DNA of 64,000 nucleotides from an uncultured Ignavibacteriota bacterium (GCA_903900335.1 CAIUMP010000056.1:157020-221019), one strand, 5' to 3'. Positions 2,675 through 14,981 are shown, counted from the stretch's first letter. Made by a program: numbers and translations. Notes: a model not told the origin generated them from the letters alone.

Positions 2675-3004
2675 TGCGAAGCTGAAGGAAATTGCCGCTC
2701 GCGACCTCGGCACATCTCCAATAATTGATTTTGGTTGTCACGCGTCCTACGTGGACACCGGACATATGACACCCGGACTTAAAGAGTGTGTGAATCCCCT
2801 TACGCGCGAATATACGCATTTTCTGCAACGACGGAATGAAAATCAGGAGCGCTCCCTGAAACGATCCTCTGGATTCCCCTGGACTACATCACGATCTCGG
2901 CGTCAAGATACTGTTATCTCTGAATCTTGATCGCGGCAACGCGGTTTAGCTTCGTCGAGCGTGCGCTCCTGCCTGACCTCCATCCTAACCAAGACTTATC
3001 ACTC

Positions 3005-3856
3005 ATGACCTTTCCCGTCTCCATCGTCGCTATTCTTCTCGGCATCGTCGAAGGACTCACGGAATTCCTTCCCGTCTCTTCAACCGGGCATCTCATCGTT
3101 GCGGATCATCTCCTCAAATTTCAAATGATGCTAGGCGATGCGGATAAGGCCGAGCTATTCGAAGTGGTGATTCAGCTTGGAGCGATCCTCGCCATTGGTG
3201 CCATTTACCGCAAGCGGCTTCTCGGCAGTCTCGGCGGGTTACTGGATATCGCCAGAACGCGCTCTACCCACAGCGCGGCTGGCAAGTTAGGCTTGAACAT
3301 CATACTTGCTTTCATGCCCGCCGGCGTTCTCGGCCTTGCTTTTCATCATATCATCAGTACCTACCTCTTCTCGCCGCTCACGGTCGGCATAACTCTCATT
3401 CTCGGTGGCGTCGCCATCATCATTATTGAAAAGCAAACTCGCGAAGATCTGCGCAGAATCACACTCGAAACCATGACTCCCGCAGATGCCCTTATCGTAG
3501 GCTTTGCTCAGGCGCTCTCGATGATACCCGGCACATCGCGTTCGGCGGCAACCATCATGGGCGGGATGCTGCGTGGCATCAAGCGTGCCTCAGCGACGGA
3601 GTTCTCATTCCTACTCGCATTTCCCACCATGCTCGCAGCCAGCGGATTCGAACTTCTCAAATATCGCCAGCTCCTTACCAGCGACATCCTCGGAATGATC
3701 GCCATCGGCTTCATCACCTCATTTGTGGTGGCGCTCGCCGTGGTGGCCTGGTTCATCCGCTACGTACAGCGGCATGAGTTCACCGGCTTCGGCATCTACC
3801 GCATCATCTTCGGCTGCTTGGTACTGGCGATGTGGGGAGCGCACTATTTGGGGTAG
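3005..3856 (+). CDS. uppP: undecaprenyl-diphosphate phosphatase (UppP/BacA)
   Basis: The translation MTFPVSIVAILLGIVEGLTEFLPVSSTGHLIVADHLL..., ~284 aa with multiple TM segments, has the conserved BacA/UppP motifs (EFLPVSSTGH and PGxSRSxxTI). The ORF-track frame 2927..3856 starts at an upstream TTG. The ATG of MTFPV is the more plausible start. Confidence 0.85.
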   Translation: MTFPVSIVAILLGIVEGLTEFLPVSSTGHLIVADHLLKFQMMLGDADKAELFEVVIQLGAILAIGAIYRKRLLGSLGGLLDIARTRSTHSAAGKLGLNIILAFMPAGVLGLAFHHIISTYLFSPLTVGITLILGGVAIIIIEKQTREDLRRITLETMTPADALIVGFAQALSMIPGTSRSAATIMGGMLRGIKRASATEFSFLLAFPTMLAASGFELLKYRQLLTSDILGMIAIGFITSFVVALAVVAWFIRYVQRHEFTGFGIYRIIFGCLVLAMWGAHYLG

Positions 3857-4165
3857 CCAGCGACTGCACAACGAGGCCACCGCTCCGGAGGCAACTTTTC
3901 ACTCTACTTCGGTCTTCCATTTTGAAATCCGAATTCAATTTGCAATGCGGAATAGTGCCCAATTCACGCTTCAATCGACAATTATGGCCGCTTCCCGCGT
4001 TGGCAGCCAATTTGTGGAATTGCTAATTCAGAAAGAGCTACTCACTCTCTAAAATGAGTCTTTTCTACAGGATGCTTATTCATCCAGGATCAGCTTCCAA
4101 CTTGAGATGGAAGCGGCCTCACCTTGACCTCCTACAGTCACATAAAGAACAGGGCGAGAGAACAG

Positions 4166-4203
4166 AAAGGCGAGTACTATTTTCAAAAATAGTAGTCGCC
4201 TTT
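4166..4203. repeat. 38-bp near-perfect palindrome (18-bp arms, 1 mismatch, 2-nt spacer) in a non-coding stretch
   Basis: The left arm aaaggcgagtactatttt and right arm aaaatagtagtcgccttt are reverse complements apart from one g/c mismatch. It lies in the ~690-nt ORF-poor gap between uppP and the AKR remnant. Confidence 0.5.
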
Positions 4204-4549
4204 CGCATTTCAGGACGGCAACTATTAGCCCACGCAACGACAAAGCCAATCCAGCAAACACCCCACTCTCTAAATCACCATTGTTTTGTGTGATGTAAAT
4301 TCGCGATTCATGAACTTCTCATATAAATCAACAACTTACAGCATTCTGTCTATAAGACAGAAAACGCTTTCCATAAATATTTTGCGGTTCCCGAACCCAC
4401 CAGCAATACGGTAGATCACCAAAGATTTCTCCCCGTCTTCCTCCCTGTGTAGCCCAGACTTTAGTCTGGGGCCCCGGAACGTCCTCGCAGACCGATGCAC
4501 AACCCGAGCCTACCGTCAGTCCCGGCATCCCTGCCCTACACCCCCCGGA

Positions 4550-4741
4550 GTGCCGTTAGGCACGAAGTACCCGCCGCCGAAGGTGCAGCTCGCGCTCGCC
4601 TGGGTACTCGCAAAAGGTGAAGACGTCATACCGATATCCCCGGCACCACGCGAGATCGAAGAGCTTGAGCGCGCCGTGCCTTACACCGAGGTCGTCGGCG
4701 AACGCTATGCCGCCGCGACGATGCGGACGGTGCAGGGGTAG
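4550..4741 (+). pseudogene. aldo/keto reductase 3'-terminal remnant (last ~55 codons, with an internal ~20-codon deletion)
   Basis: Its translation ...QLALAWVLAKGEDVIPIS-PAPREIEELERAVPYTEVVGERYAAATMRTVQG* aligns to the C-terminus of the AKR at 63677..64000 (...QLALAWVLAKGEDIIPIPGTKRRTYLEENAAAADVTLTPSEIEELERAVPHTEVVGERYAAATMRTVQG*). Nucleotide identity is roughly 85-90% by eye. There is no similarity upstream of ~4580 and no N-terminal AKR body. Confidence 0.6.
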
Positions 4742-4820
4742 GATGGTATCATGCGTGGGTCGGGCGTCCTCGCCCGACCCACCGCTTGAACTGTTTTTCA
4801 GCCGAACCGTTTTACATGAT

Positions 4821-5069
4821 ATGATTCAGACCCAGGTTAGCCTTTCCGAGAACACAGACGCACTTCTCGCCTCTTTTGCGCTTCGACAGGGCAAGAAAAA
4901 GGAAGAAATTATCGTCGAGGCTGTGGAGGCATTTGTCCATCCGCAGCTTACTCGCGAAGAGATTCTCGCGATGCGACGTCAGGCGCGCGGGATGTGGAAG
5001 GACCGGTCTGACTTGCCCGATTTCGACGCGTTGCGCCGGTCATCTGGAGAGGCACAATTCCGGTCCTAA
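4821..5069 (+). CDS. ribbon-helix-helix (CopG/Arc-like) antitoxin-like protein, 82 aa
   Basis: The only plausible part of track ORF 4617..5069 starts at the ATG at 4821: MIQTQVSLSENTDALLASFALRQGKKKEEIIVEAVEAFV... This is a short N-terminal beta-strand plus two helices, typical of RHH DNA-binding antitoxins. The C-terminal '...GMWKDRSDLPDFDALRRS' tail resembles VapB-type antitoxin tails as I recall them. The upstream 68 codons of the ORF overlap the AKR remnant in another frame. Confidence 0.45.
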   Translation: MIQTQVSLSENTDALLASFALRQGKKKEEIIVEAVEAFVHPQLTREEILAMRRQARGMWKDRSDLPDFDALRRSSGEAQFRS

Positions 5070-5134
5070 TTCGATCGAAATGTTTACCAGATTCTGAATG
5101 TCACTATGTGTCCAACAGCAGTCCCGACAACAAG

Positions 5135-6196
5135 ATGAGAAATTCTAAGAAGATATTTATTTGCTACTCACATCAGGATCAAAAGTGGCTCAAATGGCTT
5201 GATCCGATCTTAAAGCCACTCATCAGAGAGGGCACGGTTACTGAATGGAGTGACAGAAAAATCGATCCCGGCAAAAAGTGGAAGGAAGAGATTCGCGAGG
5301 CGCTTAGAACATCAGGAATTGCGATATTGATTATTAGCCAAGACTTCTTGGCATCGGATTTTATTTTCGAAAACGAACTCCCACCAATACTAGAGGCCGA
5401 GCAAGAGGAAGGATTAAGATTGCTTTGCATTTACGTTCGGCCCTGTGACATCGCTAGCTTCCCCCGTCTACTGGATTTTCAAGCTGTTAACGATCCCCAA
5501 AAACCTCTGGCTGAACTCGCCATCCCAGCGAGAGATCGAGTGGGCATTGTCATCGCAGAGAATATTAGGCAACATCAGACGTGGAAGACTGCGGGAGATC
5601 AAATTGAGAAGATATCGAAGGATGTCCCTGAAGGAACCGACGGGCTGGAGGATGATAAAGGCTTTTTAGAATACAAGGAGGACTCATTCGAGGCGATGAC
5701 AGAAATGAATGAGGTGATGGTTCGCATTGCGGAACTCACTTCGAAAGTCGGCCAAAAAGTAAATGTCCGTCAAGAGAGCCTCAATAGCATGATCACCAAG
5801 AAGGAAGATAACGTGAAATTGGCGATAAGTATTGTCAATGCTACCGCAATGGATGTTAACGAGTATTCGGAGCAACTTGAAAAGGAAGTCCCAATTCTGG
5901 AATCCAAAGCCGCGGCAATGCACGACAATCTCGTTCCATGGCTACGATGGAGACGAGAGGCAGGACACACAACCGACAATGACAGCTTTGGAAGTTCGGT
6001 GCTATCAATGATTCAAGCGGTCGAGCCTTCAATACTGCAAATGGAATCGTTTAGAGATTCAATGCTTGGGATGAAAGGAGCTTCGAAACCTTTGAATAAT
6101 GCCGTAGTTCGAGCGAGAATAATACTTGATCGCTTAATAGGTACCATGAAGAAGATTCAGACGGATTCGAAAGAGTATCTAACAATTCTAAATTAG
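5135..6196 (+). CDS. TIR-domain protein with an uncharacterised ~210-aa C-terminal domain
   Basis: The N-terminal ~140 aa hold a canonical bacterial TIR domain: KIFICYSHQDQKWLKWL...GTVTEWSDRKIDPGKKWKEEIREAL..SGIAILIISQDFLASDFIFENELPPILE. The rest (…DDKGFLEYKEDSFEAMTEMNEVMVRIAELTSK… to the end) is helix-rich with no motif I recognise. The track ORF starts at a GTG at 5108. The ATG at 5135 immediately precedes the TIR core. The gene is visibly AT-richer than the flanks. Confidence 0.8.
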   Translation: MRNSKKIFICYSHQDQKWLKWLDPILKPLIREGTVTEWSDRKIDPGKKWKEEIREALRTSGIAILIISQDFLASDFIFENELPPILEAEQEEGLRLLCIYVRPCDIASFPRLLDFQAVNDPQKPLAELAIPARDRVGIVIAENIRQHQTWKTAGDQIEKISKDVPEGTDGLEDDKGFLEYKEDSFEAMTEMNEVMVRIAELTSKVGQKVNVRQESLNSMITKKEDNVKLAISIVNATAMDVNEYSEQLEKEVPILESKAAAMHDNLVPWLRWRREAGHTTDNDSFGSSVLSMIQAVEPSILQMESFRDSMLGMKGASKPLNNAVVRARIILDRLIGTMKKIQTDSKEYLTILN

Positions 6197-6229
6197 CGAG
6201 TAGGCCACGCGTCCCCGCAAGTCTTCCTG

Positions 6230-7039
6230 CTATTCAATACTTACAGGGGCAAACGCCAATTCGAAACTACTAAACTTCCGAATTATTCGGAAAACATTTG
6301 GTCTCAATTTTCGAGCTCTAATTTTCTCGATCAGCACCGCCTCGTTTTCCTTACTTATACGCAATCCAAGAGTAACCGATTCTATAGTGTTTTCGGGTAT
6401 CGGAATAATTCTCTTAGCTCCATCGTGTAAGATCAACCTCCATTCTGACTCGTAGTCCCAATCGAGAAATTTGTGAGTGAAGGGCGCATAGTACCAATCC
6501 AGCGAAATATTGGGGTCGTAGGGATTTACCAAGGGACAGTCTGGACTGTAGACGATCCTCGGGAGAATTACATCTGCCTGCGTGCGGAGAAAGGAATAGA
6601 GAGGTGATGTTCGGTAACCAATGCAAAACCCTGTGTGATTCGCAGCATAATGTGACCACATAAGGATATTGCTCTCCTTCTCGGTTAAGGAAAATACGCC
6701 AGTCCTCTGTGACAGTTCCATTATCGCAGCCAGGTCTTCGGTTTGAGCTACTTGAAGATCCTTCGTTTGACCTATAAGCTCTAAATGCCGACTGCGGATT
6801 CGCTCCTCATCCCACGGCGGGTCGTTTACTTCGAGATTGCTCTTAAGCATATGCTCAAGAATCCTTTCGGACGACGCGCCACTGCTTCGGTACAGAATGG
6901 GGATTCCTGTATCAAATGGGTCATTAAACTCTGAGGGCGGCGAAAAATAAATCTCGTCTAGCGATTTTAAGCCGTAGCCAAGCTCATCGAAATGACGATA
7001 CTTGAACAGAATACGCGGAGGGTTTTTAGGATTGAACAT
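6230..7039 (-). CDS. DUF2971-family protein
   Basis: The Met-initiated product (ATG at 7039) is MFNPKNPPRILFKYRHFDELGYGLKSLDEIYFSPPSEFNDPFDTG… followed by …MWSHYAANHTGFCIGY…. These match the conserved N-terminal 'KYR…LYFS.P..FNDPFE' and 'WSHYA..H.G.C' signatures that I recall for DUF2971. It is convergent with the TIR gene and AT-rich. Confidence 0.6.
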   Translation of the reverse strand: MFNPKNPPRILFKYRHFDELGYGLKSLDEIYFSPPSEFNDPFDTGIPILYRSSGASSERILEHMLKSNLEVNDPPWDEERIRSRHLELIGQTKDLQVAQTEDLAAIMELSQRTGVFSLTEKESNILMWSHYAANHTGFCIGYRTSPLYSFLRTQADVILPRIVYSPDCPLVNPYDPNISLDWYYAPFTHKFLDWDYESEWRLILHDGAKRIIPIPENTIESVTLGLRISKENEAVLIEKIRARKLRPNVFRIIRKFSSFELAFAPVSIE

Positions 7040-7191
7040 TACTTGCAAAACCGGATGATTGCCGTTTTCGTCCCTTGCTGATTCTCGTGTATAGACTTGG
7101 TCATGAACGCAATCGTTCGATTCCCCCCGGCTCCATCCTCCCCGCACATTTGTTCACCTCCGCGCACATTCGAATGAGCAGATAAAACCCA

Positions 7192-9408
7192 GTGCCCAGA
7201 GTGATTATGCTAAAGACCGTTCTGTTTTCCCTCGTCCTCCTTGCCGCGATTGCCGGCATCATCGTTAATGCAAAAAGGCTGATCGACTTCCTGCGTCTCG
7301 GCTCATGGACCAACCGTTTCGACAAGCCCTCGCAGCGCGTCCGCCGCGTGCTGACGATCGCTATCGGTCAGACGAAGATCTTCCGCGATCCCGTCGCCGG
7401 CCCCATCCACGCGTTCATCTTCTGGGGCTTTATGGTGCTGCTCTTCGCGGTCATCGAGTCCATTGGCGAGGGACTCAGCGGTGGCAACTTCTCGCTCTCA
7501 TTTTTGGGGCCGGTCTATTCTGTCATGACCGTCTCGCAGGACATCTTCGTCGCGCTTATCGTCCTGAGCGTTATCATCTCTCTGTGGCGTCGCTTCGTCT
7601 CGCGAGTTAAGCGCTTGCAAGGTGATGTGCATGAGAAGACAGACGCGGCTGTTATTCTCGTTGCTATCGCGGTCATCGTTAGCTCGCTTACCATTGCGAA
7701 CGCATCGCGTATTGCCATGGGTGGTCGTTACGGCTGGGAAGTGCGCCCGCTGGCCTCGTGGCTCGCTGGAATGCTGAATGGTGGCGGTGCCTCTGTCGTG
7801 ACATCTGGTCTAACGTTACTCTATGAATCGACCTGGTGGATTCACATCACCTTCGTCCTCGGCTTCCTCAACTATCTCCCTTACTCGAAGCATCTGCATG
7901 TGATGACATCCCTTCCCAATGTCTATCTCGCTGATCTAAAGAAGAAGAATTATCTCAAGCCCATCGACTTCACCGACGAGACGATCACCAAGTATGGCGC
8001 GGCCGACATCCAGGACCTCTCCTGGAAGCAACTCCTCGATGGCGACACCTGCACGCACTGCGGACGCTGCACCTCCGTGTGTCCCGCGAATATCACCGGC
8101 AAGATTCTCGATCCGCGACAGATCATCATCGCCACGCGCAATCGTATGCTCGACAAAGCGCCGTATCTCACAGCGCAAGGTGCGTACGGATTCGATACAT
8201 GGATGGGCGAGATCGTCAAGGCCAAAGTTGCAACGACAGGCGACACCATCGTTGACGAAGTCGTAACGCCGGAAGACAAGAGTGTAAGTCATGCCGAAGG
8301 AATGCTGCTCTTCCAGAAGCCGAAGCTGACGCGCGAGGAGGTCGAAGCCAAGAAGTTCGTTGGTGATTACATCCCGGAAGAAATGCTGTGGCAATGCACA
8401 ACGTGTCAGGCGTGTATGCAGGAGTGCCCCGTAATGATCGAGCACGTTGATGAGATCGTCGATCTACGCCGCAACCTTGTGATGATGGAGTCCAGCTTCC
8501 CGCCGGAGTTGCAATCGGCCTTCAGCAGCATGGAGAATAACTTCTCGCCGTGGGCTTTTTCCCCAAGCGAGCGCGGCGATTGGGCCAATGGAATGGGCAT
8601 TCAAACGTTCGCAGAATATGCGGCATCACAAGTGGCTAATCCAACACCCGCAAATCAGACTCCACCAATTCTATTCTGGGTTGGCTGCGCTGGCTCGTTC
8701 GATCAACGCGCGAAGAAGATCACGCAGGCATTCGCGGAGTTGATGCAGTTATCGAACATCGACTTCCGCATTCTCGGCAACGAGGAAAAATGCACGGGCG
8801 ATCCCGCGCGGCGTATGGGCAATGAGTATCTCGCGCAGATGCTCATTCGCGAGAATGTCGAGACGCTCAATCGTTATCATGTGCAGAAGGTCGTGACGAC
8901 GTGTCCGCATTGCTTCAACGCGATCAAGAACGAGTGGAAGGATTTCGACGGACATTATGAGGTAGTGCATCACACGGAGTTCATCACCGAGCTGCTCAAC
9001 ACCGGCAAGATCAAACCGACGAAAGAATTGCTCGACCGCGTAACGTATCACGACTCCTGCTATCTCGGCCGCTCGAACAATATTTACGACGCACCCCGCG
9101 CCGCGCTCGAAGCGATACCCGGACTCGACATCGTCGAGATGGATCGTTCAAAATCAAAGGGGATGTGCTGCGGCGCTGGCGGCGGACAAATGTGGATGGA
9201 AGAGAAGCAAGGAAAGCGCATCAACATCGAGCGCACCGAGCAAGCGCTCGAAGCTCTCGGCCGCGGCGACATTCACGACGGCCAGACCGTCGCCTCCGCC
9301 TGCCCCTTCTGCATGACGATGATGTCCGATGGCGTCAAAGCCAAAGGCGAGGGCGATAACGTCCGCGTGCGCGATATTGCGGAGATCGTGCTGGAGGCGG
9401 TGCGGTAA
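7192..9408 (+). CDS. membrane-bound Fe-S oxidoreductase: an N-terminal polytopic (NarI/HdrE-like) domain fused to an HdrD/GlcF/GlpC-like 2x[4Fe-4S] + 2xCCG module
   Basis: The first ~230 aa have 5 predicted TM helices with conserved His residues. Two ferredoxin motifs follow ([12 protein letters not shown] and [12 protein letters not shown]). Two cysteine-rich CCG domains follow those ([10 protein letters not shown]…TTCPHCFN…HDSCYLGR…CCGAGGG). Confidence 0.8.
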
Positions 9409-9414
9409 GCTTCT

Positions 9415-10848
9415 TTAATTCAACTTCACGAATGACTTGAATAAATAGCCTTCGGATGTCCATAAACCAAGCACGAAAATTCCTGCATGAAGCTTGGACA
9501 AATCGACATCTCCCACCGTGCCGCGCGAGGAAATCAGTGGACATGCGTATGACGACCCCAGCACATCTATTGCCTCCACGCGCTCAATGGGCAGCGAACC
9601 AGCGACATCGAAATGAAGCACCGAACTTACGGGGTTAGGTGTAAGATCGATGTGAGATTGTGAAGCCTGGGAAGCGCTCCGCACGCTGGATACGGGAGGC
9701 CCGACATACCGCATCACGTAACCAGCGGTTGAATCGTGAAACGTTGTTCCAGTGACCGTGTCGTTTCCAACCGCCCAGCCATGCGAGGCATCGGTAAAGC
9801 AGAGTGCGTTGATGAGGAGACCCTTCGCGCTCACCGAATCAATCTTCCAATGCACTCCGTCGGTACTCATGGCGAGAAGGCTTGCCGGGTGTAGTGAAGT
9901 GAGTGTATCCCCGCTCGATATTGCGGCCCAAACAGCACCCCCTGCAGCTCCCATCGCTGCAATGCGACCCAGAAATATTGTAGAGCCCGTCCATGTCTCG
10001 CCCGTGTCCGTACTGAGGTAGTACGAGTTGGGGTATATCACATTCTGTCTAAAACCGTTTGTAATATAGGAGTGATAAAGCCAAATTCTCTTCGTTCCTA
10101 TCTCCGCCACGATCGGCCCAGTTGCGCTATAGTCGTTTTTGTTATTGGTATCAGGAAAAGGCTGGAAATGGTAAGCCCAATGGACTCCGCCATCGACCGT
10201 CTTAACAAAGCCAACGCCCGCGCTCGTGTCAGACTGCGACCCCCCCGGGCTGAGGCATGTTAAACTATCCAGCCAAAGTTCACCGAACGGTGCTGTTCCC
10301 GAGTTTGATTCAAAAGTACCATCTGATCGTTTCAGAGCAAAGGACTTCGCGCTGTCTTCTGTCTTGTAAATGTCCACATCGTTAGTCGAAAGGCCATAGC
10401 CGGACGAAGCCGAAAACATGTGAAGATGATCAAAGCTGGTAAGTTGGTATTTCCGATGAATCCACGTTGCACCAGAATCGAAGCTACACAAGTCGGAAGG
10501 GCTCATGTACACGACCTCGCGTGCAGGCGTAGAAATTTCAGGTCCAGATTGAAAAGTCGTAAAACTCGAATCAAGCACCGGGTCGATCTCATTCCATGAT
10601 TGCCCTGCGTCGAAAGTCCGAAAAAGGCGATAGTAGGCATACGGTTTTGAGGGAACGGGCCGAGAGAGGGAAATACCCCCGACATAACCCACCATACTGT
10701 CGACAAAGTGGACTTGCGTCGCAAGAAAATAATTTGCGATCTTCATTCTGCTCCACCCCGAGGATTGGGCGAGTGTATCGCCAAATCCCACAATGTTAAA
10801 GATTGAGATAATGATCGCAATTCGTTTGATACTTGTGTTCGGTCTCAT
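9415..10848 (-). CDS. secreted BNR/Asp-box (Ycf48-like) repeat protein with a T9SS C-terminal sorting domain
   Basis: It has an N-terminal signal peptide (MRPNTSIKRIAIIISIFNIVGF…AQS). BNR-like S/T-x-D-x-G-x-x-W motifs recur (DAGQSWNEI, DSGATWIH, DGGVHWAY, DTGETWTG, DGVHWKID). The C-terminus (…LTPNPVSSVLHFDV…VEAIDVLG…GIFVLGLW…KLN) fits the T9SS C-terminal domain. Confidence 0.65.
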   Translation of the reverse strand: MRPNTSIKRIAIIISIFNIVGFGDTLAQSSGWSRMKIANYFLATQVHFVDSMVGYVGGISLSRPVPSKPYAYYRLFRTFDAGQSWNEIDPVLDSSFTTFQSGPEISTPAREVVYMSPSDLCSFDSGATWIHRKYQLTSFDHLHMFSASSGYGLSTNDVDIYKTEDSAKSFALKRSDGTFESNSGTAPFGELWLDSLTCLSPGGSQSDTSAGVGFVKTVDGGVHWAYHFQPFPDTNNKNDYSATGPIVAEIGTKRIWLYHSYITNGFRQNVIYPNSYYLSTDTGETWTGSTIFLGRIAAMGAAGGAVWAAISSGDTLTSLHPASLLAMSTDGVHWKIDSVSAKGLLINALCFTDASHGWAVGNDTVTGTTFHDSTAGYVMRYVGPPVSSVRSASQASQSHIDLTPNPVSSVLHFDVAGSLPIERVEAIDVLGSSYACPLISSRGTVGDVDLSKLHAGIFVLGLWTSEGYLFKSFVKLN

Positions 10849-11436
10849 CTAATTTCCGCTCTCACAGCAATTCTTGTAACCACCCCCTCCATTTGGCACA
10901 TGCGATGGGTCGATGGTACAGCTACTACCATCATCGAACGTGATAGTCCAGAGGCACTTGGTGCAGGCGTGACAGAGCTCCGTCATGAACCATTCTCCCG
11001 TTGCAACTTCACCAGCGGTGGAAGTCGGATTAAATTCGACAGTAAACGCCGAAGTCGCATCGCCGCAACCGCCGAAAGCCAAATAATGTGATGTCCAGTT
11101 CGTATTGGTTCCGTTATAGCGGAGCGCGTAACAGATAGTATAGCTGCTGTCTGGCGGGGGAGTGCAGTCGATATCGATCTTCGATATCTTTTTTAGCGAA
11201 TATCGGTTCTGAAGTGAGTACTGCCTACAGCTCAAATTGGGCAGCGGGGGATCGCATACGCTCTGACAGGGAGACTCGTCGTTATGGCATTGAAAAATAA
11301 TCTGTTCGATCGGAAGCTGGGGAGGAGGAGGATCGGGCTGATTGACCGTACACGGAGTTTGTGCGTGCACGCTCTGAGTCATAGATACTGTGCTTAATAC
11401 GGCAAGGAGTATTGCAAAATACGCGGTTCGTTTCAT
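10849..11436 (-). CDS. secreted cysteine/proline-rich hypothetical protein
   Basis: It has a signal peptide (MKRTAYFAILLAVLSTVSMTQSVHAQ) and ~16 Cys in 170 mature residues. Its stop abuts the start of the downstream BNR/T9SS gene (10848/10849), so it is co-transcribed. Confidence 0.55.
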   Translation of the reverse strand: MKRTAYFAILLAVLSTVSMTQSVHAQTPCTVNQPDPPPPQLPIEQIIFQCHNDESPCQSVCDPPLPNLSCRQYSLQNRYSLKKISKIDIDCTPPPDSSYTICYALRYNGTNTNWTSHYLAFGGCGDATSAFTVEFNPTSTAGEVATGEWFMTELCHACTKCLWTITFDDGSSCTIDPSHVPNGGGGYKNCCESGN

Positions 11437-11461
11437 GGTGATTGTGTTTGAAATGTCCGAT

Positions 11462-12524
11462 TTAGAATGGAGTTAATTGCAGGAGTCCTTTATCCGTAGC
11501 TGCGAGTAGCCCGCCATCAGGTCGGTATTTCAGCGACCATACGTACCACCCGCCGAGAGTATCGATCCCTTTCCAGGAATTCCCTCGATCAAGTGATTCA
11601 TACATGCATGATTTACGCCTACCGTCATGGTTCGGACCAAAGTACCCAATGCAAATTCTTGAGGGATTCATTCGATCGATGTCAATCGCCCAGCCTGGGA
11701 ATCCATTCTTATGAGACGATAACCGCGTACTACCATACGAGAGATAGCAGTTCATACCGGTGGAATCGTAGGCGTCCGTTGTACATACAGCAAGTGTTCC
11801 GGCAACACCAGCTACTTTCGGAAGTTCTCTGCCATCGAGTCCTGTGCCACTTAGAATGGTTGTCCATGACCTCCCTGTATCATCGCTCGACAGGACGATT
11901 CCGGGTCTCGAACAACTTAAGACAAATTGCTGGCCGCGTTCTGATTCTCTGCAAATCAGTGAGCAAGCGTATGATTTGATCGCAGTGTCTGCTTTAGCTG
12001 TCGTATCCCAACTGTTACCATAGTCTTTCGACGATAGAAGACCCGGGGGATAAATGCTTGCGGCGTAAATCGTGTGACTACCTTCCTCGAAATTTAGAAT
12101 TTCACCGCCGCCAGTCCCCGTGAATACTTTGGCGAAATGATAACCTGAATCACAGCTAAGAAATAAACTTCCCATGTGACCGTTCCAGCCCGCTACGAGA
12201 ATGCTGCCGTTAGGGAGAGGTACAATTTGCTTAATAACGTGACCATTTTCTATTGTTCCAAGCGGATGCCACGTGTCCGAAGCACTATTTCTAAAGTAGA
12301 GTGTGATTCGGCTGGATGCATAGATCGGCCACTGAGCTCGTTCGTTAACCGAGAAGAAAGATTCACAATGGCGAGGAAATAGCAACTCTTGCTTGTAACC
12401 ACCCGACGCGGAAGGAGAGCGGTAACCACTGAACGAAGCTAATAGGGCGAAGCAAAAAATTGCCCCCCCCCCATCGGTGGCGGAAACTCAATAACACACG
12501 ATCAATAGAGCGACGAAACCGCAT
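11462..12524 (-). CDS. secreted BNR/Asp-box repeat protein; the 5' end is interrupted by a frameshift in a G10 (plus-strand C10) homopolymer
   Basis: The track ORF 11462..12385 starts at a TTG and lacks a signal peptide. 35 codons upstream in the same frame still encode a hydrophobic core (…GGAIFCFALLASFSG…) but hit a stop with no start. An ATG at 12524 in the +1 frame encodes MRFRRSIDRVLLSFRHRW…, a signal-peptide n-region. The two frames join inside the homopolymer at 12463..12472. The body has BNR motifs (GNSWDTT, DTGRSWTT, DRGNSWKG). Confidence 0.55.
12463..12472. repeat. C10/G10 homopolymer tract at the signal-peptide junction of the BNR gene
   Basis: It reads tgcccccccccc atcgg on the plus strand. 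Removing one G restores a continuous ORF from the ATG at 12524 through the BNR body. Confidence 0.55.
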
Positions 12525-12842: not shown

Positions 12843-14981
12843 TTATCTCCCTGGATTGATAATGGTGTATCCAATTCTGATCTTGTCCGACGTGCTGTAG
12901 TTGGTCACGTTCGTTGCCGTCGGAATCATCCCGACACGAATATCGAACGCGCCCGACGTTCGGTTATCGACATCGACAAAGTACTCCGCTTGTTTGGCAT
13001 CCGGCAAAATGCCGTCATCTATCTTCGACAAAACGCTCACGATGACAATGCTCGATGCCGACGTATAGCGGTTGTTGATCGTGAGCGTGCCGAGGTTCTG
13101 GAATGTCCCCGCAGTCGGTGCCGCTGTAACAAGATTTCCAGTCGCGCCAAGCGTCAGTTCTATAACGCCGCTCGGTCCTTCGGCAGAGTATGATGTTCCC
13201 GCCGTTGCACCTTCGACGACTGCTCCCACACTTGGGCTTTGCGTCGTGCGTCCCATCGCGAACTCGCCGTCGTTCAGTTGCAGCGCCACGTTCGTCTGTC
13301 CTGCGGTGGTGTTGCCGTTACCAGTTGCCAGCACACCGATCGTGCCGGTGTTCGATGAGTTGGTATTCGTCGCCGTACCCCACACCCCTACCGCTTGGTT
13401 TGCAGTACTTCCGTTTGCGTTCGCATAGACCGCGGCAACTTCGTCCGTCGTACCCGTATAGAGCGAGTGAAATTGGTGCGTTGTAGTGGTCGTGTTCACT
13501 GCCACTTGACCGCTGGAGAGTATGCGCATTCTCTCCGTATTGTTCGTACGAAAGACCAGGGCCTGTGCATCGATCGTGCCGAGATAATTCGTAGAAGAGC
13601 TCGTGCCAGTATTACCCAAGGTACTCCAATAGAGATTGGACGTCGACGTCCAAACCGGTGCAGTGGCAGAGCCCGTTGAAGCCAGCACATAGCCTGATGT
13701 TCCCGCATTACCAGCAGGCATCAAAGCGCCGGAGAAGCGAAGATTACCTACAATATCAAGCGCTTCGGCAGGAGTTTGGGTACCGATACCCACCTTCGTT
13801 CCACCGCCGGAGTTGTAATAGACAACCGAGTTGTCTTGCGTAACTGTCGCTCCGACACCAAAGGCAAGGGAGTAATTGCCTGTCACGGTATTCGTATTAC
13901 CGCCGAGGATCGTTGAATAATTACCACACGCAGTGTTATTACTTCCACCGACCACAACGGAATAGGATCCGCACGCACTATTGAATTGGCCCGCGCAAAC
14001 TGCGGAGTAAGATCCCGTTGCCGAGTTGCTGGTGCCTCCGCCAACGCTGCTGTAATCACCACTTGCCGTATCTGAGGTGCCTCCGGCCACGACAGAGGCA
14101 TAACCCGTTGCGCGATCGAACTCGCCCCACGCCACCGAACCTGCCCCGGAGGCAAGGTTGCTAAGACCATCCGTTATGGAATAGGCACCAGAGGCCGTAC
14201 AGTTCGAGCCAACGCCAACAAGAGCAAACGTACCGCTACCGCGTTTCCACAAAGTATCGACACCGCCACCCCCGACAAAGCCGAACCCCTTCCAGGAGAG
14301 ATTGCCAGATCCGTCCGTGCAAAGGACGTAGTCTGTACCATTTCCATCCTGGGGAGGAAGGATATATGTTACGCTTGCCGTTTGGACGCCAGCTTTGAAT
14401 CCCGTGTATGTCGAACCAGACCCCGAGGGCTCATAGAATCGGAGCTCCTCCGCGTTGTTGGTCGTATTCGTGAGACCCACATTTCCTCCGGCATATACGC
14501 GCATGTGTTCTGTATTATTCGTGCGAATCACGAAATCGACCGAGTCCTTTGTACCAAGAAAATTGGTGCTTGCGTTTGTACCGGAGTTTCCAAGAATAAG
14601 CCAGCCAGAGCCAAGGAATGGCACCCAAGCCGTTCCGTTATAATAATAGAACGTGGAGGGATTCGAAGCATTTACGGAGTCCGTGCAATAGACAAGAAGA
14701 CCGGTCGCCGGAGATGCGATCGCGCTGCGTTGGGATTGCGTCATTCGTGGAACCAGCAGTCCACGCGACAAACTGGTAAGATCCAAGAGTGCGCTCGCGT
14801 CCGGCGAAACGGTACCGATGCCGACGTTACCTTGCGCGTGAACTGCGGGCACCAGCGAAGCAGTAAGGGCAGCCAATAGGATGAACGTGCAGGATAACCT
14901 TCGCAAGCATCGCACGCGTGCGCCCCGTGCCGCTCGCCGACGTGGCTCCATCATTTGTTGTTTGAAACGTGTGTATTGCAT
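12843..14981 (-). CDS. large secreted repeat protein, paralog type 1 (copy A): tail-fibre-like N-terminal module, YadA-head-like G/S/N repeats, conserved C-terminal domain
   Basis: It has a signal peptide (…CTFILLAALTASLVPAVHAQ). Next comes QGNVGIGTVSPDASALLDLTS…GLLVPRMTQSQRSAIASPATGLLVYCTDS…FYYYNGTAWVPFLGSGW, and this module recurs at ~aa 390 (KVGIGTQTPAEALDIVGN…). A 14-residue-period Gly/Ser/Asn repeat block follows (ASGDYSSVGGGTSNSATGSYSAVCAGQFNSACGSYSVVVGGSNNTACGNYSTILGG). The C-terminus is …YFVDVDNRTSGAFDIRVGMIPTATNVTNYSTSDKIRIGYTIINPGR. It is ~75% identical to copy C. Confidence 0.75.
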   Translation of the reverse strand: MQYTRFKQQMMEPRRRAARGARVRCLRRLSCTFILLAALTASLVPAVHAQGNVGIGTVSPDASALLDLTSLSRGLLVPRMTQSQRSAIASPATGLLVYCTDSVNASNPSTFYYYNGTAWVPFLGSGWLILGNSGTNASTNFLGTKDSVDFVIRTNNTEHMRVYAGGNVGLTNTTNNAEELRFYEPSGSGSTYTGFKAGVQTASVTYILPPQDGNGTDYVLCTDGSGNLSWKGFGFVGGGGVDTLWKRGSGTFALVGVGSNCTASGAYSITDGLSNLASGAGSVAWGEFDRATGYASVVAGGTSDTASGDYSSVGGGTSNSATGSYSAVCAGQFNSACGSYSVVVGGSNNTACGNYSTILGGNTNTVTGNYSLAFGVGATVTQDNSVVYYNSGGGTKVGIGTQTPAEALDIVGNLRFSGALMPAGNAGTSGYVLASTGSATAPVWTSTSNLYWSTLGNTGTSSSTNYLGTIDAQALVFRTNNTERMRILSSGQVAVNTTTTTHQFHSLYTGTTDEVAAVYANANGSTANQAVGVWGTATNTNSSNTGTIGVLATGNGNTTAGQTNVALQLNDGEFAMGRTTQSPSVGAVVEGATAGTSYSAEGPSGVIELTLGATGNLVTAAPTAGTFQNLGTLTINNRYTSASSIVIVSVLSKIDDGILPDAKQAEYFVDVDNRTSGAFDIRVGMIPTATNVTNYSTSDKIRIGYTIINPGR

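Follow-up and report, generated by a model that had tools for sequence, protein, structure and literature searches.

A low-GC islet of a Kapaibacterium-like genome holds two candidate single-gene defence modules: a TIR protein with an uncatalogued four-helix bundle and a DUF2971 protein

The 64,000-nucleotide stretch of DNA analysed here (the window; GCA_903900335.1 CAIUMP010000056.1:157020-221019) comes from an uncultured Ignavibacteriota bacterium and carries, between two housekeeping genes, an islet whose AT-rich core (5070-7100) holds two convergent genes. One of them encodes a 353-residue protein in which a canonical TIR domain is joined to a C-terminal four-helix bundle (4HB), and which we call TIR-4HB; the other encodes a 270-residue DUF2971 protein. 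The original prediction, made from the window alone, had correctly listed an 82-residue ribbon-helix-helix (RHH)-like gene, the TIR gene and the convergent DUF2971 gene between uppP and an Fe-S oxidoreductase gene, and had proposed that the three form one defence or toxin module. The locus is composed as follows, with coordinates counted from the first letter of the window.

2927..3856, plus strand: uppP/BacA, left housekeeping flank (Pfam BacA, E=1.6e-83)
3857..4585, no strand: non-coding spacer within the non-syntenic region, AT-rich (48% GC)
4586..4741 (open reading frame (ORF) 4550-4741, 63 codons), plus strand: 3' remnant of an aldo/keto reductase (AKR) gene, 65% GC
4821..5069, plus strand: RHH antitoxin-like gene, 82 residues, orphan; 55% GC, host-like
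5135..6196, plus strand: TIR-4HB protein, 353 residues (Pfam TIR_2, E=1.4e-14); 44.6% GC
5150..5554, plus strand: TIR domain, about residues 6-140 (Pfam TIR_2; PADLOC ThsB1, TIR part)
5375-5377, plus strand: codon of the putative catalytic Glu81, from alignment to plant TIR NADases
5663..6190, plus strand: 4HB domain, residues 177-352 (AF2 model; HMMER family of 147)
6230..7042, minus strand: DUF2971 protein, 270 residues (Pfam DUF2971, E=1.5e-8), convergent with the TIR gene
6443-6451, minus strand: ExE motif E198/E200 within the DUF2971 gene
7192..9408, plus strand: CCG/4Fe-4S oxidoreductase, right housekeeping flank (Pfam CCG, 4e-33)

Orthologues of the Fe-S protein with 67-77% identity occur in Candidatus Kapaibacterium/Ignavibacteriota metagenome-assembled genomes (MAGs). 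In three Kapaibacterium relatives (L020, L021 and L022) uppP lies directly before the Fe-S gene with a gap of only 80-160 bp, while this gap amounts to 1.4 kb in L018 and to 3.3 kb in the window; in other relatives the region upstream of the Fe-S gene differs again. Because the relatives have either a short gap or a different upstream region, positions 3857-7191 are non-syntenic, and the direct adjacency of the two genes in three relatives indicates that about 3.3 kb of foreign DNA entered between uppP and the Fe-S gene of this Kapaibacterium-like genome. We looked for the hallmarks of a mobile element in the insert (3857-7191), i.e. a tRNA, an Rfam family, an integrase or flanking direct repeats, and found none of them.

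The core of the insert also stands out in its composition. The GC content of 5070-7100, which comprises the TIR and DUF2971 genes, is 45.2% compared with 53.2% for the whole window (z=-4.2 for 2-kb windows, sd 1.9%), and no 2-kb stretch of the window has a lower value. Both genes are alike in this respect (44.6% for the TIR gene, 45.3% for the DUF2971 gene), and their GC content at third codon positions (GC3) is 0.47-0.48, whereas the flanking uppP and Fe-S genes have values of 0.67-0.71. The AT-rich islet that had been judged by eye is therefore real, but it is narrower than predicted and has its start elsewhere than at 4550, as neither the AKR remnant (65% GC) nor the RHH gene (55% GC) is AT-rich. 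Positions 3857-4549 form a second, separate AT-rich spacer without genes (48% GC). Its predicted extent of 4550-7150 falls between a wider non-syntenic region and a narrower AT-rich core, and its surroundings have 53-56% GC instead of the assumed 58%. The view of an accessory, horizontally acquired islet with the flavour of a defence locus agrees with both the insertion relative to related genomes and the low GC content.

In TIR NADases the Glu of the 'DEL' motif of plant TIR domains is the catalytic residue. Glu81 of the window protein aligns with this Glu in 3jrn and 7xoz, two plant TIR domains of which the second was deposited as an ADP-ribosyl cyclase/cyclic ADP-ribose hydrolase, and it is invariant among the four TIR-4HB proteins that we compared; a canonical TIR domain with a Glu at the catalytic position had thus been recognised correctly. 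The best PADLOC model for the protein is ThsB1 (PDLC00420, 1.3e-18), which matches through profile positions 3-148 of 319, and the remaining PADLOC matches above noise are likewise confined to residues ~4-160. An identical protein (P0001) is on record in five contigs. A search of 5.8 billion clusters returned only one orthologue that matches over its full length, P0002 of a Kapabacteria MAG, which is 70% identical; all other matches cover the TIR domain alone (35-51% of the query).

The C-terminal part, which had been called unassignable, is indeed covered by no curated library: searches of Pfam, PADLOC, NCBIfam and PHROGs (among them Pfam 2025, PADLOC 2.0 and NCBIfam 20) gave no match for it. 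An AF2 model nevertheless predicts a four-helix bundle with high confidence (pLDDT 93.9, pTM 0.86), whose helices span residues 177-221, 227-276, 282-311 and 318-352. A comparison of the corresponding profile with the PDB gave only generic helical bundles (designed bundles, spike HR1, SNAREs), nothing significant was found in BFVD, and no housekeeping fold was matched. A word-indexed search with the 4HB profile returned one protein, and the alignment of the close subfamily, used as a pattern, had no matches in metagenomes or viral contigs. An exhaustive HMMER search with residues 143-353 against 1.84 billion representatives, however, recovered 147 relatives at E<=1e-3, so that the domain is present in at least 147 protein clusters. 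The matched stretch of ~180 residues is almost always C-terminal, although 11 of the 147 proteins continue for more than 40 residues beyond it. An alignment of 41 sequences (A3) revealed two conserved motifs, GFL(D/E) at the start of the bundle and FRD..L.G.S..LN.A..R....LD around the turn between the third and the fourth helix.

When the N-terminal parts of these relatives were typed by Pfam (120 members of at least 255 residues, plus representatives) and clustered by BLAST (all 147), it became clear that the bundle follows very different heads:

DUF4062: BLAST cluster of 45 members, 33 of them assigned by Pfam; PADLOC PDC-S60 matches the N-terminus at 1e-51
NDT/TIR-like: cluster of 39 members, 29 of them assigned by Pfam; match to PDLC00733, the 'Effector TIR' model for CBASS in PADLOC
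canonical TIR: 5 members
PIN_8: 2 members
OLD-type AAA_21 plus TOPRIM nuclease: 1 member
SEFIR: 1 member
protein kinase: 1 member
helix-turn-helix (HTH): a few members
fewer than 50 residues before the bundle: 25 members, either headless or fragments cut by a contig end

The 4HB is therefore a real, widespread and portable module behind interchangeable heads (DUF4062, NDT/TIR-like, TIR, SEFIR, PIN, OLD). TIR-4HB represents a variant of a recently recognised architecture, and its bundle is an uncatalogued module common to several effector heads.

The genes of this family do not keep constant company. The orthologue P0002 (locus L001) is encoded between a ribonucleotide reductase gene and a gene pair with weak resemblance to YafQ, with an unrelated ORF of 187 residues upstream and with neither an RHH gene nor a DUF2971 gene as neighbour. 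In a second locus (L162), a TIR-4HB gene is located between a radical-SAM gene upstream and a short, cut-off ORF with a weak match to Ribosomal_L28 (E=0.004); the genes upstream of TIR-4HB in L001 and L162 are not homologous to each other. A pattern scan of metagenomes for the subfamily with NDT-like heads yielded 19 loci that carry the 4HB, and across these and five further 4HB contexts no neighbour is conserved. An NDT-like+4HB gene is embedded in a type I restriction-modification (R-M) operon in L098 (hsdM-hsdS-[gene]-hsdR, gene at 3771-4853), and another stands between hsdR and mcrB-mcrC in L096 (hsdR-[gene]-mcrB-mcrC, gene at 4986-6086). A family member in L099 adjoins an integrase and a T5orf172 gene, a DUF4062-4HB gene adjoins an IS630-type transposase and an RHH-PIN pair, and a PIN_8+4HB gene (L166, 6001-7563) separates two methylmalonyl-CoA mutase genes, which gives the impression of an insertion into a housekeeping operon. 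The GC content is 4.5-28 points below that of the flanks in all eight 4HB-family genes checked, and likewise in four of four DUF2971 orthologues. Taken together, these contexts and the low GC content are the signature of solitary, mobile genes of the defence-island type.

For the second gene of the core, the start that gives 270 residues agrees with the lengths of homologues (267-271 residues). The protein matches the PADLOC model of a candidate single-gene system, PDC-S31 (PDLC04994), over its full length (6.9e-48, positions 10-267 of 273) as well as phrog_1762 (7e-36). Its confidently predicted fold is that of a DarT/Tpt1-like ADP-ribosyltransferase (ART) with a conserved Tyr and an ExE motif. 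In an alignment of 72 homologues W129, H131, Y132, H136, Y165, K191, E198, E200 and R202 are invariant; the ExE motif, formed by E198 and E200, has thus been kept. DUF2971 has been predicted to be a HYE-clade ADP-ribosyltransferase near DarT and AbiGi (PMC12522546), and Aristaios, a validated single-gene anti-phage system from a lactococcal plasmid, is a 316-residue DUF2971 protein (PMC11381338). The defence association of the family, which the original prediction had mentioned, is therefore well founded.

Orthologues of the DUF2971 protein (52-74% identity) are found as solitary genes in four housekeeping settings, each of them different. The genes convergent with them bear no relationship to one another (SHMT; T5orf172 plus a CopG/BrnT pair; a hypothetical protein; Mrr_cat), and a TIR gene is found in none of the four. 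DUF2971 tends to occupy mini defence islets with variable company, as it does in the window. More distant relatives (27-30% identity) reside on 305 plasmids, mainly Enterobacteriaceae plasmids of ~106-110 kb such as that of S. Typhi CT18, in four phage records, one of which is Salmonella phage SSU5, and in 252 viral contigs (IMG/VR); the family is often phage-borne. Within 6 kb of 80 viral DUF2971 loci (790 kb) we found no TIR, 4HB, DUF4062 or NDT-like gene. By sequence, the gene of the window is an ordinary Kapaibacterium member of the known PDC-S31/Aristaios-type single-gene family. As a separate observation, two of these four contexts have a defence-like gene convergent with the DUF2971 orthologue (L005/L006, T5orf172/MUG113 with CopG-BrnT; L008, Mrr_cat).

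The left part of the insert has a different character. The AKR remnant matches residues 254-319 of the 337 residues of perakine reductase (E=8e-6, PDB sequence search) and is followed by its own GC hairpin (4755-4782). It is a partial copy, with 88% nucleotide identity and an internal deletion of 54 nt, of the 3' end of an AKR gene at 63677->64000 (minus strand), which is apparently intact and continues beyond the window's right end. Since the remnant is a partial copy of a paralogue and the homology stops at the stop codon, it represents debris rather than a marker for the edge of the AT-rich DNA. The remnant itself had thus been identified correctly but not its role as an insertion scar, and it is not evidently a gene that was broken in place by the TIR/DUF2971 DNA. 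A paralogous AKR fragment has accordingly been moved or duplicated over ~59 kb, in inverted orientation.

The 82-residue ORF next to it is real, and its residues 4-60 match the Bacillus subtilis RHH antitoxin EndoAI (4me7_E, E=6.8e-4, phmmer against the PDB). This is its sole significant similarity: Pfam, PADLOC, NCBIfam and PHROGs gave no match, and no homologue was found on plasmids. A PADLOC scan, which had been suggested as a check, thus identifies the DUF2971 gene (PDC-S31) and the TIR part of TIR-4HB (ThsB1) but neither the bundle nor the RHH gene. That the small protein is RHH antitoxin-like is plausible but weakly supported. No MazF/PemK-type toxin is encoded directly 3' of its gene, the next gene being TIR-4HB.

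The spacer 3857-4585 contains a near-perfect hairpin (4165-4204, 19-nt arms, 2-nt loop) that has no Rfam match, and a small ORF (4054-4293) that gave no PADLOC match and only a chance-level Pfam match. On the far side of the islet, three genes without Pfam or PADLOC match (9415-12385) lie between the Fe-S gene and two large tandem PTL_trimer (Pfam) genes (12843-14981, minus strand, and the next gene), ~6 kb downstream of the islet.

From these results it is reasonable to propose that the islet comprises two independent single-gene modules of a defence (abortive-infection) type, TIR-4HB and DUF2971, together with bystander debris. We consider this the probable reading. As the best explanation within it, the RHH gene and the AKR fragment, both normal in GC content, are bystanders that probably stem from earlier rearrangements. 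The enzymatic activity, trigger and defence phenotype that we infer for both proteins would take the following form. The DUF2971 protein would be an NAD+-dependent ART that, upon infection, ADP-ribosylates a nucleic-acid or protein target and thereby aborts phage growth. In TIR-4HB at rest, the bundle would hold the TIR NADase head inactive; a phage component would then act as a trigger, whereupon the bundle might drive the assembly of the TIR domains into active NADase oligomers, and their depletion of NAD+ would lead to abortive infection.

A more far-reaching proposal, which we put forward tentatively and hold to be somewhat less probable, concerns the bundle itself. The 4HB could be an undescribed portable module for trigger sensing and assembly that defines a new family of single-gene abortive-infection systems with freely exchanged killing heads, the window gene being the version with a canonical TIR. 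If the 4HB is a sensor, evolution has joined one sensing domain to six or more types of effector head, and the family would offer a natural head-swap series for studying how activation is passed on to TIR-like NADases and nucleases.

Several points weigh against two independent modules. The TIR and DUF2971 genes are separated by only 33 bp, and their nearly identical GC content (44.6% and 45.3%) is compatible with joint acquisition. In the metagenome contig L100, a divergent DUF2971-like gene (1213-2214; local profile E=9.5e-7, no Pfam match) directly precedes, in the same orientation, an NDT-like gene (2367-2892) that the contig end cuts in its acidic linker; apart from the window, we have seen no other case of a DUF2971-like gene beside a TIR-like one. 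Furthermore, the association with defence islands derives from a handful of contexts, most contigs being short, and the lineage of the window's TIR protein is tiny, with one orthologue among 5.8 billion clusters.

Among the alternatives, the one that survives best is that the islet is inert or non-defence cargo, i.e. decaying or differently used genes such as inter-bacterial toxins or regulators without an anti-phage role. Approximately 18% of DUF2971 proteins have been predicted to be secreted effectors (PMC12522546), the fold of the 4HB gives no functional clue, and the neighbouring AKR fragment shows that debris accumulates at this site. Decay is at odds with two full-length ORFs that have kept all catalytic and invariant residues and give confident predicted folds, and the identical TIR protein on five contigs as well as the R-M and McrBC loci among the contexts of the 4HB family also speak against mere cargo, so that we regard this explanation as unlikely.

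It is more unlikely still that the RHH gene and TIR-4HB constitute a type II toxin-antitoxin-like pair, in which an EndoAI/MazE-like RHH protein represses and/or neutralises a TIR NADase toxin. The arrangement would suit such a pair, given that the RHH gene is situated 65 nt upstream of TIR-4HB on the same strand, resembles an antitoxin gene (E=6.8e-4) and is not followed by a MazF-type toxin gene. The pairing is not conserved, however, as the orthologous TIR gene is preceded by the unrelated 187-residue ORF. Other 4HB-family genes have no upstream RHH gene either, and the single RHH gene that was seen (L165) pairs with a PIN gene ~1.8 kb away. In addition, the two genes differ in GC content (55% versus 45%), and the small protein is itself only weakly assigned to the RHH type, Pfam giving no match.

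We likewise give little credence to a Thoeris-type ThsB sensor whose ADPR-derived product would signal to a ThsA-like effector encoded at another site of the genome. ThsB1 is the best PADLOC match, and a related TIR-4HB protein (P0281) matches the same model at 9e-61; yet the match of the window protein ends with its TIR part, and there is no ThsA, SIR2, SLOG or Macro gene near the window locus or near that of the orthologue. Moreover, other proteins join the same 4HB to PIN or OLD nuclease heads, which kill directly, or to DUF4062 NADases, and this speaks for the head as the effector.

Least probable of all is the three-gene module of the original prediction, or its bolder variant in which TIR-4HB and a DarT-like ART arrived jointly and work together by means of NAD+ chemistry, for instance with the ART acting on or with the TIR product and the RHH protein serving as regulator or antitoxin. 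Adjacency, equally low GC and GC3, two enzymes that are both predicted to use NAD+, and the DUF2971-like gene next to the NDT-like gene in L100 would fit such a system, but the two genes are convergent and hence not one operon, the TIR orthologue has neither partner, none of the four other DUF2971 contexts and none of the 80 viral loci provides a TIR-type or 4HB gene, DUF2971 is missing from all 21 other 4HB loci (two with the TIR orthologue, 19 from metagenomes), the Aristaios protein acts alone (PMC11381338), and the RHH gene has a host-like GC content. On the basis of these neighbourhood comparisons we have rejected the three-gene module, and a TIR+DUF2971 system architecture finds no support; a TIR homologue without DUF2971 or RHH neighbours is the pattern that the original prediction had itself named as refuting it.

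The proposed pair of solitary genes can be placed relative to known systems. With the ThsB protein of Thoeris, TIR-4HB shares the TIR domain, but its C-terminal half lies outside the ThsB1 match and no ThsA partner is present in its neighbourhood; therefore, it is not a Thoeris system. The TIR effectors of CBASS, Pycsar and SPARTA (TIR-SAVED, TIR-STING, PycTIR, TIR-APAZ) resemble it in combining a TIR NADase head with a regulatory or oligomerising partner domain, and give weak PADLOC matches to the TIR part. TIR-4HB lacks a SAVED, STING, cNMP-binding or APAZ domain, and no cyclase or Argonaute gene is located nearby. Since neither a signal-binding domain nor a partner is present, TIR-4HB does not belong to the effectors of these three systems.

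The DUF2971 protein differs from DarT, the ssDNA thymidine ADP-ribosyltransferase of DarTG, in its low identity (7-15%) and in large helical inserts, and its neighbours in the window do not include a DarG macrodomain antitoxin. It is closest to PDC-S31/Aristaios, with which it has in common the full-length PDC-S31 match, the ART fold and the nature of a solitary gene without conserved partner; with Aristaios itself the likeness is one of shared family. In contrast to the plasmid and phage homologues that were found, to which it is 27-30% identical, it is encoded on a Kapaibacterium-like chromosome.

The closest counterparts of TIR-4HB are Swarozyc (KpSwz) and Evangelion (Eva01), single-gene anti-phage systems in which a DUF4062 TIR-like NADase is followed by an essential, unannotated C-terminal AUX domain (bioRxiv preprints of 2026, 10.64898/2026.05.01.722283; 10.64898/2026.06.25.731849). 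The AUX of Swarozyc has an HTH/winged fold and binds the phage portal, which leads to NAD+ hydrolysis and abortive infection (10.64898/2026.05.01.722283); defence by Evangelion depends on its AUX, and the phage mutations that permit escape lie in recombination proteins (10.64898/2026.06.25.731849). The activity of both systems has been shown by experiment, whereas that of the 4HB proteins is predicted. The head of the window protein is a canonical TIR_2/TIR domain with no match to the DUF4062 (NIR) core, and the predicted four-helix bundle is set apart from the AUX of KpSwz by its fold. We also considered whether the 4HB is homologous to the AUX of Eva01 and rejected this, as hhalign gave a probability of 4%, i.e. 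no significant similarity, in a comparison with a single Eva01 sequence (from pMW2); plasmids carry Eva01 homologues only as near-identical copies from Staphylococcus. A side observation on the same sequence is that the last 37 residues of Eva01 (L161, pMW2, 3863-4837; KNYKATLVDIKGLNKHFYKECDRCLKAYNIFIEGINK) align with the 4HB motif around the third and fourth helices, albeit within this 4% comparison of one sequence.

What the three have in common is a single polypeptide with an N-terminal NADase-type head of the TIR superfamily that contains the catalytic Glu, and a C-terminal auxiliary domain without family assignment. Like the two systems, TIR-4HB is a solitary, horizontally mobile single gene, and a DUF4062 head is found on about a third of the 4HB family. 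By analogy, its mechanism may follow the logic shown for DUF4062+AUX systems. If the 4HB is indeed the sensor, this class would come to include canonical TIR heads as well as a defined family of AUX domains that has escaped the current annotation libraries.

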